IMG/VR virus record: IMGVR_UViG_3300013458_000001
Span: 1-43,992 of that record
Origin: a virus
DNA length: 43,992 bases
Reading direction: 5' to 3' (one strand)
A program made the translations under genes and the position numbers. This document shows, one piece after another, positions 5,351-28,520 of the stretch. The notes under the pieces were generated by a model that was not told where the DNA came from, did not search any database, and saw only the letters and a list, made by a program, of their open reading frames with translations. Each line of letters opens with the position of its first letter. The first letter of the stretch is position 1.

Positions 5351-5767
5351 ATGATAACGATTGAACGACACGATATAAAGAAACTAGAAGATTATATCAA
5401 GAACATAGAACGCTATAGACGAGAGTTAAAAGTAAGAGAGTATGAATTGTTAGAGAACCACGAACCCGAAAATGTAGGTGCAGGTAAAAGTAATATACCA
5501 GGTAATCCTATTGAGAGAGAATCAATTAAGAAGTTAAGTGACAATCGTTATAACAACTTACGTAATATTGTAAAAGGTGTAGATAAGCTTATATATGAAT
5601 CAGATGAAGATACACAAGACTTAATGCGTTTGAGATATTGGGAGTGTCCGATAGGTTGTAGTGAGTGGGAGGATATAGCTGACTACTTCGGAACAAGTAA
5701 GACGAGTATATTAAGACGACGTGACGCGATGATAAATAGATTGGCAGAATTCATAGGTTATGTGTAA
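5351..5767 (+). CDS. Late-gene transcriptional activator, RinA/ArpU-like (138 aa)
   Basis: It is the last gene before terS. The C-terminal sigma-region-4-like HTH is WEDIADYFGTSKTSILRRRDAMINRLAEFIG. Size and architecture match RinA-family regulators. Confidence 0.7.
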   Translation: MITIERHDIKKLEDYIKNIERYRRELKVREYELLENHEPENVGAGKSNIPGNPIERESIKKLSDNRYNNLRNIVKGVDKLIYESDEDTQDLMRLRYWECPIGCSEWEDIADYFGTSKTSILRRRDAMINRLAEFIGYV

Positions 5768-5939
5768 GGTGGACTTTTGAAGTGTGTAAGTCCGTTTATA
5801 ATCGGTGTATTATGATATTGTAAGAATTACCTCACAAGACATAGTGTTTATCCTTTCGCACTATGGTGGGGTATTCAATATCGAAGTGATTGGATAAGTG
5901 TTTATCTTCTTTAACTAGACGTTGCGCATCCGATTGCTT

Positions 5940-5971
5940 AACTATCCGTCAGAGTGGCGGGTAGTTTTATT
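5940..5971 (+). promoter_or_regulatory. Stem-loop (9 bp), paralogous to the 6044 terminator hairpin
   Basis: aactatccg-tcagagtgg-cgggtagtt followed by ttatt. It shares tatccgt.aga...cgggta with 6044-6069, and the outer pairs are swapped (aact/agtt versus agtt/aact). Confidence 0.6.
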
Positions 5972-6043
5972 GAATCTTACAACACGGCTTCTGATACGAT
6001 GATATGAATACTTGACATGTAATTTTTCCTCTCCCCTTAATTA

Positions 6044-6079
6044 GTTATCCGTGAGAACACACGGGTAACTTATTTTTTA
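6044..6079 (+). terminator. Intrinsic terminator 1 in the late leader
   Basis: gttatccgtg-agaaca-cacgggtaac (10 bp including one G-U) followed by ttatttttta. Confidence 0.75.
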
Positions 6080-6087
6080 TGTATTGA

Positions 6088-6108
6088 TGTGACATAGAGG
6101 TGTGACAT
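6088..6108 (+). repeat. Direct repeat tgtgacat x2 (13-bp phase), candidate activator box
   Basis: tgtgacat at 6088-6095 and at 6101-6108. Confidence 0.5.
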
Positions 6109-6148
6109 GAGTGCATAAACTCAAATAAATAACAAAACATAATCATTA

Positions 6149-6176
6149 GGCACTGTTTACGCAGTGTCTTTTTTAT
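6149..6176 (+). terminator. Intrinsic terminator 2, 47 nt upstream of the terS ATG
   Basis: ggcactg-tttacg-cagtgtc followed by ttttttat. Confidence 0.75.
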
Positions 6177-6222
6177 ACGTCAAACAAAGGTGTTTAACCG
6201 TGAGAGTAGGTGGTAATATACG

Positions 6223-6657
6223 ATGACGAAACTGAACCTTAAACAACAAACATTTGTTGATGAGTACATTAAGACAGGTACTGCTTATCAATCGGCAATC
6301 AAGGCTGGTTATAGTGAGAAATACGCAAAATCAAGTAGTCATAAATTGTTGGAAAATGTGGGAATAAAAGCAGAAATAGACAAACGAATGGAAAAACTAA
6401 AAAAAGATGCAATTGCAGACCAAGACGAAATACTTCAATATCTTACTTCTGTATTACGTGGAGAGGTAACAGACCAAGAACTCATACCGATTGGAATTGG
6501 TAGAGGAGAAATGGAAGTAGAGTCTTTGGAAAAACGATCAGATACTAACGCTAGAACGAAAGCTGCAGAATTATTAGGCAAACGATATATGATGTGGACA
6601 GACAAGCAACAAATCGAAACAACTGCGACGGTACAGTTCAATGACGATATCGATTAA
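6223..6657 (+). CDS. terS: Terminase small subunit (Terminase_2-type)
   Basis: The N-terminus LKQQTFVDEYIKTGTAYQSAIKAGYSEKYAKSSSHKLL is typical of Terminase_2 TerS. SD aggtgg. Located directly upstream of terL. Confidence 0.85.
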   Translation: MTKLNLKQQTFVDEYIKTGTAYQSAIKAGYSEKYAKSSSHKLLENVGIKAEIDKRMEKLKKDAIADQDEILQYLTSVLRGEVTDQELIPIGIGRGEMEVESLEKRSDTNARTKAAELLGKRYMMWTDKQQIETTATVQFNDDID

Positions 6658-7906
6658 TCTATCCGAACTGTTACCTAAACACTTTCATGGACTGTGGAAA
6701 GCTACTAAGGACAAAGAAAAACTTAACATAGTAGCTAAAGGTGGACGTGGTAGTGGTAAGTCCTCTGATATATCTATCATCATTACACAGTTAATCATGC
6801 GCTATCCTATGAATGCAGTTGTAGTACGTAAGACGGATAATACATTAGCTACATCAGTATTTGAACAAATCAAGTGGGCGATAGAAGAACAAAAGGTGTC
6901 ACACCTGTTCAAAGTTAAAGTGTCGCCAATGGAAATCACATATGTACCTAGAGGGAATCGGATTATCTTTAGAGGGGCACAGAACCCTGAACGATTAAAG
7001 TCGTTAAAAGATAGTCGGTTCCCTTTTTCTATCATGTGGATAGAGGAGTTAGCAGAGTTCAAGACAGAAGATGAAGTTACGACAATTACTAACTCTATGC
7101 TACGTGGAGAACTAGACGACGGATTGTTCTACAAGTTTTTCTTTAGTTATAACCCGCCTAAGAGAAAACAATCGTGGGTTAATAAAAAATACGAAACCTC
7201 ATTCCAACCAGATAACACATTCGTACATCATTCAACGTACTTAGATAACCCTTTTATCTCTAAGCAATTTATACAAGAGGCAGAGAGTGCGAAAGAACGT
7301 AACGAACAACGTTATCGTTGGGAATATATGGGCGAAGCCATTGGTAGTGGCGTTGTACCGTTTAATAACTTACAAATAGAAACGATACCCCAAGAAATGA
7401 TTGACGGTTTTGACAACATAAGGAATGGCCTTGACTTTGGATATGCTGACGATCCGTTAGCGTTTGTCCGTTGGCATTATGATAAAAAGAAACGGGTTAT
7501 TTACGCTATCGATGAATATTACGGTGTTCAGATTAGTAATAGGCAATATGCAAACGAAATGTGGAAAAGAAAATATCAGTCAGACGACATTTACGCTGAC
7601 CATGCCGAACCTAAATCAATAGCTGAATTAAAGCGAGAACATGGCATGAAAAAAGTAAGACCGGTTAAAAAAGGGCCTGATAGCAGAGAATATGGTGAAC
7701 AATGGTTATCTGATTTAGAAGCTATCATAATAGATCCAAAACGTACACCGAATATCGCAAGAGAATTTGAAAACATAGATTATCAAACTGATAAAGATGG
7801 AGATATTATTCCTAAATTAGAAGATAAAAACGACCATACAATTGACGCCACTAGATACGCCCTAGAGCGTGACATGAGGCAGAATAAACTTAGCATACTT
7901 ACGTAA
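6641..7906 (+). CDS. terL: Terminase large subunit (PBSX/Terminase_3-like, headful type)
   Basis: Walker A GGRGSGKS, 421 aa, overlaps the end of terS. Confidence 0.9.
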   Translation: MTISINLSELLPKHFHGLWKATKDKEKLNIVAKGGRGSGKSSDISIIITQLIMRYPMNAVVVRKTDNTLATSVFEQIKWAIEEQKVSHLFKVKVSPMEITYVPRGNRIIFRGAQNPERLKSLKDSRFPFSIMWIEELAEFKTEDEVTTITNSMLRGELDDGLFYKFFFSYNPPKRKQSWVNKKYETSFQPDNTFVHHSTYLDNPFISKQFIQEAESAKERNEQRYRWEYMGEAIGSGVVPFNNLQIETIPQEMIDGFDNIRNGLDFGYADDPLAFVRWHYDKKKRVIYAIDEYYGVQISNRQYANEMWKRKYQSDDIYADHAEPKSIAELKREHGMKKVRPVKKGPDSREYGEQWLSDLEAIIIDPKRTPNIAREFENIDYQTDKDGDIIPKLEDKNDHTIDATRYALERDMRQNKLSILT

Positions 7907-14346: not shown

Positions 14347-14372
14347 GAGGGCATTAAGCCCTCTATTTTTTT
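14347..14372 (+). terminator. Intrinsic terminator after the major tail gene
   Basis: gagggc-attaa-gccctc followed by tattttttt. Confidence 0.8.
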
Positions 14373-26363: not shown

Positions 26364-26477
26364 ATGGGATTACCTAGCCCTAAAAGAAGAAAACCCACTG
26401 CTTCGGAAGTTGCAGCATGGGCAAAGAGTAGAATTGGAAAAAGATTAGATGTCGATGGTTATTATGGAGCACAGTGT
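26364..26477 (+). CDS. Virion-associated peptidoglycan hydrolase, exon 1 (CHAP N-terminus, 38 codons)
   Basis: MGLPSPKRRKPTASEVAAWAKSRIGKRLDVDGYYGAQC ends at the CHAP catalytic Cys codon. SD gaggtgg. Confidence 0.8.
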
Positions 26478-26723
26478 TAAATCTAGCACCTTTGATGAGC
26501 AATCATCATAGCAAACTCCTCTAATTCATGGAAACCCTAAACAAGTTATGTTGTAGGCAATCATGAGCGAAGCCTATAAATAGGAACGTGCAACGACTAG
26601 TCGAAAGACGTACACTCAAGCGAGTGGAAACGGGGGGCAACCTTAATGGTTGATGATATAGTCTGAACATTCATAGAAATATGAAGAAGGTGACAAGTAG
26701 CGATTGTCATCGTAACAAAATTG
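26478..26723 (+). mobile_element. Group I intron (IA-like, ORF-less, 246 nt)
   Basis: The 5' exon ends in U paired to G (gtgt/gcac). The intron ends in G. Foldable elements: P2 26493-26508 (GCAA loop), P3 26516-21/26632-37, P4 26525-31/26561-67 with A-rich J4/5, P6 26573-84, P7 26595-99/26659-63, P7.1 26600-09 (GAAA), P7.2 26613-26, P8 26638-52, P9 26670-85 (GAAA), P9.1 26691-709. Confidence 0.8.
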
Positions 26724-28520
26724 TGGGATTTACCTAACTATATTTTTAAAAGATATTGGGGTTTTTTTACAACAGGAAATGCGATTGCTATGGCATGGTA
26801 CAGATACCCTAAAGGCTTCAAATTCTATAGGAACACTAGAAACTTTGTTCCGAAACCTGGAGATATGGCTGTATGGGGAAAGGGTTCCTTTAATAACGGT
26901 GTTGGGCATACTGCTGTTGTCATAGGTCCATCTACCAAAAGTTACTTTACTAGTGTGGATCAAAATTGGATTGGTGCAAATAGTTATACAGGCTCACCTG
27001 GTGCTAAAATTAAACATAGTTATAACGGTATAAGTGGGTTCGTCAGACCACCTTATCATCCGGAAACTAAGAAACCGTCTAAACCAAGTAGTACACCGTC
27101 CAAACCTTCTAATGACAACACTCCTAAAAACACAAAAGAACAAACGAAACCTATAACTAAAGAAATTACCAAAGTTTCCTATACATCATTCGCATACGAT
27201 TTAGACGATGATTTAGAATACATTTATCATTATATGGTTGAAGGTCAAAAGTTGATAGGGAAAGTAAAAGGTATATATATCAAAGAGAGTACACATATGC
27301 GTTCTGTTGAAGAATTATATTTACAACGTAATAAATATGTAAATGAAGATGAATATCCTCATGTATATATAGACCGAGAGCGTGTATGGACGCCTAGACC
27401 TGATTCAGAAGAAGCACCAGAACATCCAGGTTGGCTTGTTATGGAAGTTTGTGGAGGACAAACAGAAAGCAAACGGCAATTCATGCTCAATCAAATCAGA
27501 GCGTTAATCTACGGCGTTTGGTTGCTAAGTTGGAGTAAGGTAAAACTATCTGAATCATCAATCAAAGCAGACCCTAATATATGGCGTTCTATGAAAGATT
27601 TAATTAATTACGACTTAATCAAAAACGGTATTCCTGATGAAAGTAAATATAAAGAAGTTGAAAAGAAAATAATAGGTTTATATTTAAAAAGAGATAAATT
27701 ACTCACAGAAACGATTACCACAACAACTACAAAGACAACCATAAAGATTAAACCTAAAACTTCGGTCGATAACCCTGAACAGAACGACAAACCGACAGAC
27801 AAAAAAAGCAAAACAACAAACAGAACTTCGAATAAACCTCGTGTAGTTGTAGAGAAAAGTAAATATACTTTCCAACAAGCACTGAACGCTCAAATGGCAT
27901 ACGGTAAACCTCAAAAATCTTATAGTTGGGGTTGGGGAAATGCATCTAGGTCTCAAACGAGTAAGTATATGAACCCTAACACTATATGGAATAGTTCAGT
28001 ACAAAGGTATCAAATGTTAGATCTTGGTAAGTATCAAGGTATATCAGTAAGTAAGTTGAATAAGATACTTAAAGGTAAAGGTACTCTATCCGGACAAGGT
28101 AAAGCTTTCGCAGACGGTTGTAAGAAATACAACGTAAATGAAATATACTTAATTGCTCACGCTTTCTTAGAAAGTGGATATGGCCGTAGTAACTACGCAA
28201 GTGGACGTTATGGTATATACAATTACTTTGGTATTGCAGCATACGACAATGATCCTAACGCTTCTATAGGATACGCTAGACGTCAAGGCTGGACGAGTCC
28301 ACGTAACGGTATTATAGGTGGCGCTAAGTTCGTTAGAAAACAATTCTTTAATCAAGGAAAGAATACTTTATATCGAATGCGTTGGAACCCTAAAAATCCA
28401 GGTCGTATGCAGTACGCTACTGCTATTGAGTGGTGTAATTTCCAAGCAACAACAATAAACAGTTTATACAAAAAAGTAGGATTAAAAGGTTTGTACTACA
28501 TTCGCGATAAATATAGATAA
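26724..28520 (+). CDS. Virion-associated peptidoglycan hydrolase, exon 2 (rest of CHAP, linker, GH73/LYZ2 glucosaminidase)
   Basis: WDLPNY...GDMAVW...GHTAVV continues the CHAP domain. C-terminal GQGKAFADGCKKYNVNEIYLIAHAFLESGYG is glucosaminidase-like. No credible independent start (the track uses TTG at 26721). Confidence 0.85.
   Translation, partial: WDLPNYIFKRYWGFFTTGNAIAMAWYRYPKGFKFYRNTRNFVPKPGDMAVWGKGSFNNGVGHTAVVIGPSTKSYFTSVDQNWIGANSYTGSPGAKIKHSYNGISGFVRPPYHPETKKPSKPSSTPSKPSNDNTPKNTKEQTKPITKEITKVSYTSFAYDLDDDLEYIYHYMVEGQKLIGKVKGIYIKESTHMRSVEELYLQRNKYVNEDEYPHVYIDRERVWTPRPDSEEAPEHPGWLVMEVCGGQTESKRQFMLNQIRALIYGVWLLSWSKVKLSESSIKADPNIWRSMKDLINYDLIKNGIPDESKYKEVEKKIIGLYLKRDKLLTETITTTTTKTTIKIKPKTSVDNPEQNDKPTDKKSKTTNRTSNKPRVVVEKSKYTFQQALNAQMAYGKPQKSYSWGWGNASRSQTSKYMNPNTIWNSSVQRYQMLDLGKYQGISVSKLNKILKGKGTLSGQGKAFADGCKKYNVNEIYLIAHAFLESGYGRSNYASGRYGIYNYFGIAAYDNDPNASIGYARRQGWTSPRNGIIGGAKFVRKQFFNQGKNTLYRMRWNPKNPGRMQYATAIEWCNFQATTINSLYKKVGLKGLYYIRDKYR

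Follow-up and report, generated by a model that had tools for sequence, protein, structure and literature searches.

RinA-type regulators operate the packaging and lysis switch in most temperate staphylococcal phages, and thereby govern both transduction and the way in which pathogenicity islands spread. The region analysed here is the gap between the RinA-family gene rinA and the terminase gene terS in a stretch of viral DNA of 43,992 nucleotides, hereafter the window (IMG/VR record IMGVR_UViG_3300013458_000001, positions 1 to 43,992). The closest described systems are the PterS regions of phages phi11, 80alpha and phi29, for which RinA binding and the requirement of RinA for late expression are known from experiment (PMC3152322, PMC3753634). 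As in the window, a RinA-family gene is followed there by a repeat block (PMC3152322, PMC3753634), a TATTATGATAnTGTArGA motif, an intrinsic terminator and a GAGAGTwGGTGG Shine-Dalgarno block before terS, and a single promoter serves the entire late cluster of morphogenesis and lysis genes (PMC3753634). The window differs in the length of the gap (455 bp, compared with 186 bp in PterS), in its box (an inverted repeat GGACTT/AAGTCC rather than the direct repeat TGGCAGT) and in its additional elements, namely a structured domain of 165 nt, a second terminator module and a hairpin termed P4.

The comparison indicated that the gap is a real, conserved, structured control region of a single late operon and an expanded form of the phi11/80alpha rinA-terS region. 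It probably consists of a RinA-dependent promoter directly 3' of rinA followed by a folded, conserved RNA leader of ~400 nt. Our reading places the late start at a -10 hexamer close to the box, whereas the published PterS start lies 23 nt before terS, and it includes RinA-linked read-through of two leader terminators, T1 and T2. We assign this reading as a whole, with a start at ~5820, a probability of roughly 0.5.

Predicted late promoter directly after rinA

Control regions were compared across ~170 collected rinA loci, which gave 64 distinct gaps of the coagulase-negative Staphylococcus (CoNS) type and 21 distinct gaps of the phi11 type. One modular plan was common to about 70 related leaders: the rinA stop, a repeat block, a spacer of fixed length, a hexamer, 6 nt, a G and the leader, with a structured domain that varies, a pyrimidine-rich tract, a terminator hairpin with its U-tract and a TTAAC-GTGAGAGTwGGTGG block with the Shine-Dalgarno sequence. 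Repeat blocks of the CoNS type have the form GGACTT-N11-AAGTCC, and those of the S. aureus types consist of two copies of TGGCAGT or TGACAGT. The phi11 gap can be aligned with that of the window at both ends and has the same order of elements, namely repeats, TATTATGATAGTGTAGGA, a hairpin with T6, GAGAGTTGGTGG and the ATG. The promoter elements predicted in the window are as follows.

5771 to 5793, no strand assigned: inverted repeat GGACTT-N11-AAGTCC, putative RinA operator (conserved position after rinA, unique in the window)
5808 to 5813, + strand: hexamer TATTAT, -10 element of the proposed RinA-dependent late promoter (fixed 14-nt spacing from the box)
5820, + strand: G, predicted late transcription start, 7th nucleotide after the -10 hexamer (from comparative geometry)

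The inverted repeat occurs once in the 44-kb window (0 expected), begins 3 nt past the rinA stop and was found directly 3' of that stop in all CoNS-type relatives. Its position is that of the TGGCAGT/TGACAGT repeats required by the RinA proteins of phi11, 80alpha and phi29, so that the window carries the repeat block of an Ltr/RinA control region, but in inverted rather than direct form. The initial annotation had instead suggested a tgtgacat repeat as the activator box. This repeat is present at 6088 and 6101, but its copies form the arms of hairpin P4 (6076-6119) and the published homologous boxes directly follow rinA, so it was rejected as a RinA box. A separate direct repeat, TGTGTAAG, was observed at 5761-5768 and 5783-5790 (22-bp spacing), the first copy covering the rinA stop and the second the inverted repeat's right arm. 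Relatives retain it in part (ATGTrTAAG), and it may represent an alternative RinA box.

The spacer between box and hexamer was always 14 nt, with variable sequence, in about 35 distinct CoNS leaders, and 20 nt in the phi11 and S. aureus types. Invariant length combined with free sequence points to promoter geometry. Among 32 distinct variants the hexamer reads TATTAT, TATCAT or TATCGT, with A2 and T6 never changing, and the core promoter motif TATYATGRTANTGTRA occurs once in the window.

The same geometry was seen where regulators of other families stand before a shared leader. At the module junction, a RinA-type locus (L152) reads TATTAT-gatatt-GTAAGAATTATC / GTAAGAATTATCTTAAGACGTGG and the LtrC-type phage phi55 reads TATAAT-tgactt-GTAAGAATTATC / GTAAGAATTATCTTAAGACGTGG, continuing into the same leader; the LtrA-type S. 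pseudintermedius phage phiSP44-1 reads TATATT-aatagt-G. The -10 hexamer therefore sits at an equal distance before the same leader in phages with LtrC- or LtrA-type activators, and both phi55 and Phi13 carry TATAAT in register with the window hexamer. The Ltr-controlled P23 promoter of Phi13 resembles the window in having activator repeats (-107 to -42) and a -10 hexamer 6 nt before a G start (PMC13123087), with TATAAT-tgctgt-G at TSS23. This start was predicted genome-wide, and mutation of its TATA box abolished promoter activity and phage production (PMC13123087). The activator repeats of the TP901-1 Alt system lie at -76 to -32. These two systems differ from the window in using LtrC/Alt-family regulators rather than RinA, and in Phi13 the repeats overlap the coding end of the regulator and the leader is only ~75 nt, lacking a large structured domain. 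In four sequence-distinct leader types, including that of phi11/80alpha, a 5' hairpin starts at the predicted +1.

Four independent observations, namely the fixed spacing, the module junction at +1, the TSS23 geometry of Phi13 and the hairpins at +1, converge on G5820, and late transcription most likely starts near this position. A 59-nt RinA-binding block was reported to be both necessary and sufficient, also in a fusion with enterococcal DNA (PMC3753634). By our count this block takes in the repeats, the hexamer and positions +1 to +6, which implies that the swap experiments transferred a complete promoter.

Folded leader RNA and its predicted terminators

Folding of the whole gap gave a z-score of -4.82 on the + strand and -1.50 on the - strand relative to shuffled sequence. 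At least seven hairpins are present, rather than the five originally listed, and every named hairpin is more stable on the + strand (the weaker minus-strand versions reach -12.0, -6.3 and -7.2 kcal/mol). The comparison across relatives shows that the gap is predicted to form a conserved, structured RNA leader on the + strand, with the following elements.

5818 to 5982, + strand: structured 5' leader domain P0-P3 (RNAalifold consensus and covariation)
6023 to 6038, + strand: CU-rich tract UUUUUCCUCUCCCCUU (pyrimidine tract before T1 in most leader variants)
6043 to 6079, + strand: T1, intrinsic terminator and second twin hairpin, with an 11-bp stem, loop AGAACA and U-tract (terminator scan)
6076 to 6119, + strand: hairpin P4, holding both tgtgacat copies (inverted repeat, fold energy)
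6148 to 6175, + strand: T2, second intrinsic terminator, a separate module (terminator scan)
6194 to 6222, + strand: conserved TTAACCGTGAGAGTAGGTGG block with the terS Shine-Dalgarno sequence AGGTGG at 6208-6213 (eye alignment with phi11 ...tatagCgcGAGAGTTGGTGGtaaatgaaATG)

In the 5' domain, P0 (5818-5825 with 5975-5982) encloses P1 (5828-5873), P2 (5885-5938) and P3 (5940-5966). Across 66 pairs, 97.7% of cells were paired and 18 pairs showed compensatory change, with 0 of 500 shuffles as good and slid controls reaching at most 0.10 compared with 0.34, in an alignment of only 6 leaders at 73-97% identity from 3-4 lineages. P3 (-15.3 kcal/mol, z -5.7, + strand; 5 of 12 pairs compensatory) is the first of the twin hairpins and characterizes the long-form leaders, which include those of the window, phage SU1 and two further loci (L050, L072). 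Short-form relatives have P0 as a simple hairpin, and the long form accordingly resembles an insertion into P0.

The twin hairpins (5940-5966 and 6044-6069) share TATCCGT.AGA...CGGGTA with their outer pairs swapped, as the initial annotation had described and as can be read directly from the sequence, and the CUAUCC/GGGUAG helix motif of T1 recurs in the first twin. Two further likenesses were observed: TTAwCCGTsAGA occurs in three copies (5942-5953, 6045-6056 and 6194-6205), and the 5' arms and loops of the twins have a sequence paralogue in the terS 5' untranslated region (UTR) TAACCGTGAGAGTAGGTGGTAA, which matches 5943-5966 at 17 of 24 positions. The 6194-6222 block itself is conserved across several families of first gene (terS).

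Both terminators proposed at the outset were recovered by the + strand scan, at 6043-6070 plus TATTTTTTAT and at 6148-6169 plus TTTTTATACG, with 3 sites in 2 kb against 0.7 expected. Two predicted intrinsic terminators therefore lie between rinA and terS, as in an Ltr/RinA control region, and the window carries two terminator modules in tandem. T1 (-15.1 kcal/mol, z -5.3, + strand) was found in almost every leader of the CoNS type. Its 19 distinct versions had 99.5% of cells paired and compensatory change in 7 of 11 pairs, with 0 of 500 shuffles as good and the signal collapsing in slid controls. Its U.G wobble (6048/6065 in the window, alignment columns 8-25) and the adjoining A-U pair were invariant in 19 of 19 versions; on the opposite strand the wobble would be a C.A mismatch. 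Invariant pairs amid a covarying stem suggest sequence-specific recognition of the helix. P4 (-19.5 kcal/mol, z -7.0, + strand) is kept, with substitutions, in SU1, L048 and phiSP44-1. T2 (-11.6 kcal/mol, z -5.7, + strand) belongs to a module, 6103-6190, that S. aureus and S. pseudintermedius phages also carry (it is conserved in EW, SAP3 and S. pseudintermedius phages), and shows a compensatory A-U to G-C change in phiSP44-1. Covariation among relatives was thus seen for either terminator and for either twin hairpin. In the leaders, about 32-66 nt separate the last terminator, which is T1 where T1 stands alone, from the first late gene.

Across four regulator families (Phi13, phiFL2A, phi11, phi55 and the CoNS phages), a terminator in the leader seems to be a general feature of Ltr-controlled late operons. 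Like the window, Phi13 has a terminator-like hairpin in its leader, a 10-bp stem with U5AU5 between TSS23 and the first late gene, and in the Enterococcus phage phiFL2A a 12-bp hairpin (-16.9 kcal/mol) with U5 lies between even the published 5' end and terS. In phi11, read-through from an induced Pcad promoter was fully blocked at the rinA-terS terminator when RinA was absent (PMC3152322), which indicates that a terminator in this gap works in vivo.

These data bear on the possibility that T1 and T2 are simply leaky, that a strong RinA-activated promoter suffices and that the ~260-nt leader is a by-product or a small RNA with a CU-rich seed. The U-tract of T1 is interrupted (UAUUUUUU), and the single-stranded CU-rich tract right before a terminator resembles the seeds of staphylococcal small RNAs. 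Tandem stems of -15 and -12 kcal/mol with 5-6 U would, however, cost most late transcription, the phi11 terminator blocks induced Pcad completely without RinA, and no pairing of the CU tract with a terS Shine-Dalgarno target was found. We regard this explanation as quite improbable, and only the terminated leader could act as a stand-alone small RNA.

In most related leaders the CU-rich tract precedes T1, usually by no more than about 25 nt, and reads UUUUUCUCCUUUCU. The tract is complementary to a strong Shine-Dalgarno sequence, but a role as anti-Shine-Dalgarno of terS was rejected because duplex energies were no better than those of shuffled tracts. No Rfam covariance model matched in the gap at gathering score (best sub-threshold score 20 bits or lower), nor in the phi11, Phi13, L152 or EW gaps, and ARAGORN found nothing in the gap. 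On the Rfam gathering and E-value thresholds and the empty ARAGORN result, a known RNA family (riboswitch, leader, small RNA or put/EAR-type element) was rejected.

The conserved, covarying 5' domain raises the question of whether the leader RNA itself drives or regulates read-through, as a cis antiterminator like HK022 put or as an attenuator, with RinA only activating initiation. P0-P3 would then modify the polymerase, or 5955-5966 would pair with 6043-6053 and so block T1. Inspection showed that the shared twin arms could form such a 2:3-type alternative helix, with 10 of 11 pairs including wobbles, and T1 is constrained beyond pairing (the invariant U.G and the loop AGAnnA). The alternative helix is, however, weaker than the two hairpins that it would replace. 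Short-form leaders (~160-210 nt from the -10 hexamer, gaps of 209-256 bp) that lack P1-P3, and with them the first twin, retain T1 and serve near-identical RinA proteins, and the leader sequences of phi11, Phi13 and phiFL2A are unrelated. Like HK022 put, the window has stem-loops directly 3' of a phage promoter and upstream of terminators to be crossed; put, in contrast, acts without a phage protein, whereas RinA is required in systems of the window type, and the structured domain of the window is absent from short-form relatives and has no Rfam match. An RNA-driven mechanism is on balance unlikely.

Late start sites and proposed terminator read-through

If late transcription starts near 5820, it has to pass T1, T2 and the internal terminators by read-through. 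Under the favoured mechanism, RinA would bind the block right after its own gene, here 5771-5793, as demonstrated experimentally in relatives, and would activate the host polymerase at the adjoining promoter, which lacks a -35 element (TATTAT 5808-5813), with a start at ~G5820 suggested by comparative geometry. The remaining ~400 nt would be transcribed as a leader comprising the 5' domain, the CU-rich linker, T1, P4, T2 and the terS ribosome-binding site. T1 and T2 would stop read-through from the early operon, which ends with rinA, as the phi11 terminator does in experiment, and presumably also ordinary polymerase started at the late promoter. Late expression would then need terminator read-through tied to initiation at the RinA promoter, most likely because RinA makes the polymerase terminator-resistant, in a topology like that of lambda Q at PR'/tR'. 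Such a polymerase would also cross the internal terminators, five or six in number, within the ~25-kb late region, and initiation not followed by read-through would yield a ~260-nt leader RNA (5820-6079). The + strand scan confirmed internal, intergenic terminator-like sites noted earlier, at 14347, 25872, 26313, 28520 and 30247; across two 20-kb regions, on both strands, it returned 19 and 18 sites against about 9 and 8 expected.

The window resembles the Q/PR'/tR' module of lambda (and of 82 and 21) in having a regulator gene directly upstream of the late promoter, a regulator DNA site at that promoter, a short leader that closes with an intrinsic terminator ahead of the first late gene, and one promoter for a late operon of >20 kb with internal terminators. 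The leader terminators of the window would lie between the late promoter and terS if the start is at ~5820, but not if it is at ~6199. As in lambda, a -10-like hexamer occurs in the first transcribed bases (TAAGAA/AAGAAT, +2 to +8); such hexamers are present at this position in most leaders and overlap helix P0. There are also differences. Members of the RinA family reportedly activate a promoter that is otherwise silent, whereas lambda PR' is constitutive, and for RinA a sigma-dependent pause near the promoter, loading and terminator-resistant elongation are hypothetical. The AlphaFold model of RinA is all-helical (pLDDT 81). Foldseek returned no significant PDB fold match for it, the weak top hits being mostly sigma factors with E above 1, and phmmer of RinA against PDB was empty; RinA was accordingly dropped as a recognizable Q or sigma homologue.

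It is plausible that RinA itself would make the polymerase terminator-resistant. That it is a processive antiterminator is a tentative proposal, with the odds against it. We hold with similarly low confidence that such a RinA would be analogous in function to lambda Q, would have an unrelated, sigma-region-4-like fold and would load at the promoter after its own gene. Extension to the whole Ltr superfamily (RinA, ArpU, LtrA, LtrB and LtrC) as promoter-coupled processive antiterminators, with the terS-proximal starts being processed ends, is possible but doubtful.

Several points weigh against a start near 5820 with read-through. A 5' end that depends on RinA was mapped 23-24 nt before terS, by 5'-RACE (rapid amplification of cDNA ends) in phi11 and by TEX/RLM-RACE in 80alpha, and the authors argue that it is a primary end (PMC3152322). 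By eye alignment this end is homologous to window position ~6199, downstream of T1 and T2. The 80alpha mapping, made on exonuclease-treated RNA, is stronger than the other RACE sites and is the main contrary evidence. The initial annotation had named a start downstream of 6176 as grounds for abandoning read-through, and on paper the RACE homology falls there; its argument that no room for a promoter is left after T2 is unsafe for the same reason. The proposed promoter has no -35 element and was missed by a consensus promoter scan, and the alignment behind the 5' domain is small. Leaky terminators or the RNA itself could also account for read-through. Finally, RinA has no detectable sequence or fold homology to Q (Q21 chain 6p19_Q matched the RinA model at E 6.6 and TM 0.30 in Foldseek). 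A start at ~5820 with read-through is in conflict with the published phi11/80alpha start, and the papers on related phages did not conclude read-through; a literature search found no report of RinA or ArpU antitermination or of a re-mapped late start.

Were the published model to hold unchanged, T1 and T2 would end the early operon only, and a RinA-dependent promoter between T2 and terS would start transcripts at ~6199. RinA would act over a long range from a box ~400 bp upstream, and the intervening structure would be a spacer or the rinA 3' UTR. The RACE ends at -23 and -24 in phi11 and 80alpha, the TTAAC-GTGAGAGTAGGTGG block conserved around the RACE position across terS families, and the terminator upstream of that position are all consistent with this model. 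Inspection and scanning of the sequence just upstream of ~6199, however, revealed no acceptable sigma-A -10/-35, the -35 position falling in the stem or U-tract of T2, and a sigma-A promoter at this place was rejected. Relatives that share the RinA type differ in the distance from the box to the ~6199 site, which ranges from about 130 to 470 bp. Such variation is hard to square with direct activation, and RinA binding was found to require sequence >155 bp upstream of the RACE end, which the original authors found hard to explain (PMC3152322). The published model also leaves unexplained the invariant spacing between the box and the -10 hexamer, the module junction and hairpins at +1, and the Phi13 data.

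In addition, two other RACE starts reported by the same group in 2013 look like processed ends, as they coincide with a tRNA 3' end or with coding sequence. In phiFL2A the published start is a G 118 nt before terS (PMC3753634), and it lies 2-3 nt past the 3' end of a tRNA-Arg, so that it looks like a product of tRNA processing; the TTGGCGG repeats of this phage are directly followed by a promoter-like site. This tRNA-Arg(ACG) was observed at 5630-5704, within the ~795-bp arpU-terS gap (GQ478084, L174). In phi55 the published start is 28 nt upstream of the terS ATG (PMC3753634). The annotated ATG (266) is internal to a homologous open reading frame (ORF) that begins 41 codons earlier (NC_007060, L172, 143-637), with TTG at 143 (ATG in L058), so the published start may lie inside terS, provided that the annotated internal ATG was used.

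Taken together, we consider it likely that the late start lies upstream of T1, and rather unlikely that the published model stands unchanged. Read-through, as originally proposed, gains from the geometry that places the start near 5820 and from the hairpins that follow the late 5' ends in Phi13 and phiFL2A, and is contradicted by the RACE homology at ~6199; the sequence comparison favours it more than the literature would suggest, yet it is unproven. The puzzle of 2011, that RinA binds >155 bp from the mapped start, would be resolved simply if the promoter touches the RinA box and a leader with a terminator follows, and has in this form become a directly testable hypothesis. Dependence of read-through on RinA would move a very large family of 'activators' from Gram-positive phages into the antiterminator class and would define a new conserved, structured phage RNA. 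Should the published start stand, the region would still be well conserved, yet an ordinary spacer of terminator plus promoter.

Genome setting and distribution of the gap

The gap (5768-6222, 455 bp) comes from a temperate S. epidermidis siphophage and is 98% identical to that of phage IME1348_01; further relatives of the window phage are CNPH82, PH15, phiIPLA5/7, 456 and 459. It is flanked 5' by a RinA-family gene and 3' by terS and terL, which is the location of an Ltr/RinA late-operon control region.

5351 to 5767, + strand: rinA, RinA-family gene (NCBIfam TIGR01636, 45.7 bits, cutoff 31.9)
6223 to 6657, + strand: terS, first late gene (Pfam Terminase_2, E 5e-30)
6641 to 7906, + strand: terL, next after terS

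The gap is non-coding, as first described: the longest ORF on either strand is 33 aa, and no ORF on either strand was conserved among relatives. A hidden gene or micro-ORF was rejected on these grounds, the candidates having been the 33-aa ORF and one of 13 aa, both on the minus strand, the latter lying behind the AAGGAG-like complement of the CU tract. The description of the leader as unusually long is a relative one: homologous gaps measure 186-516 bp, with ~450 bp the commonest length among phages with 96-100% identical RinA. Gap lengths ranged from 209 to 865 bp in the CoNS type (from the ORF finder) and from 186 to about 330 bp in the phi11 type.

The first late genes behind the same gap are of at least six types, several unrelated terS as well as HNH plus a cos-type module (in SU1), indicating that the gap travels with rinA and not with the terminase. 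This bears on whether the gap is a DNA packaging site (cos or pac) in which repeats and hairpins bind terminase. It lies just 5' of terS, and the deposited records of PH15, CNPH82, phiIPLA5/7, 456 and 459 start inside it. A published study of relatives, however, found no defined termini and inferred headful packaging, so these record starts are a matter of convention, and both the U.G wobbles, which are conserved, and the asymmetry between the strands point to RNA. With headful relatives that have no defined ends and a gap that follows rinA rather than terminase type, a cos or pac site was rejected as extremely improbable.

Non-staphylococcal host labels were found on sequence of S. epidermidis phage type in three records: OR842880, 'Xanthomonas phage SU1' (L001), a Rheinheimera tilapiae contig (L004) and a Promicromonospora contig (L005). 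SU1 is classified as Rockefellervirus, and the RinA proteins of the two contigs are 99-100% identical to that of the window; mislabelling or contamination is likely for all three. Elsewhere in the window, Rfam detected a group I catalytic intron (RF00028) at 26467-26686 on the + strand (95.3 bits, E 1.8e-23), in the late region just 5' of the ORF at 26721-28520.

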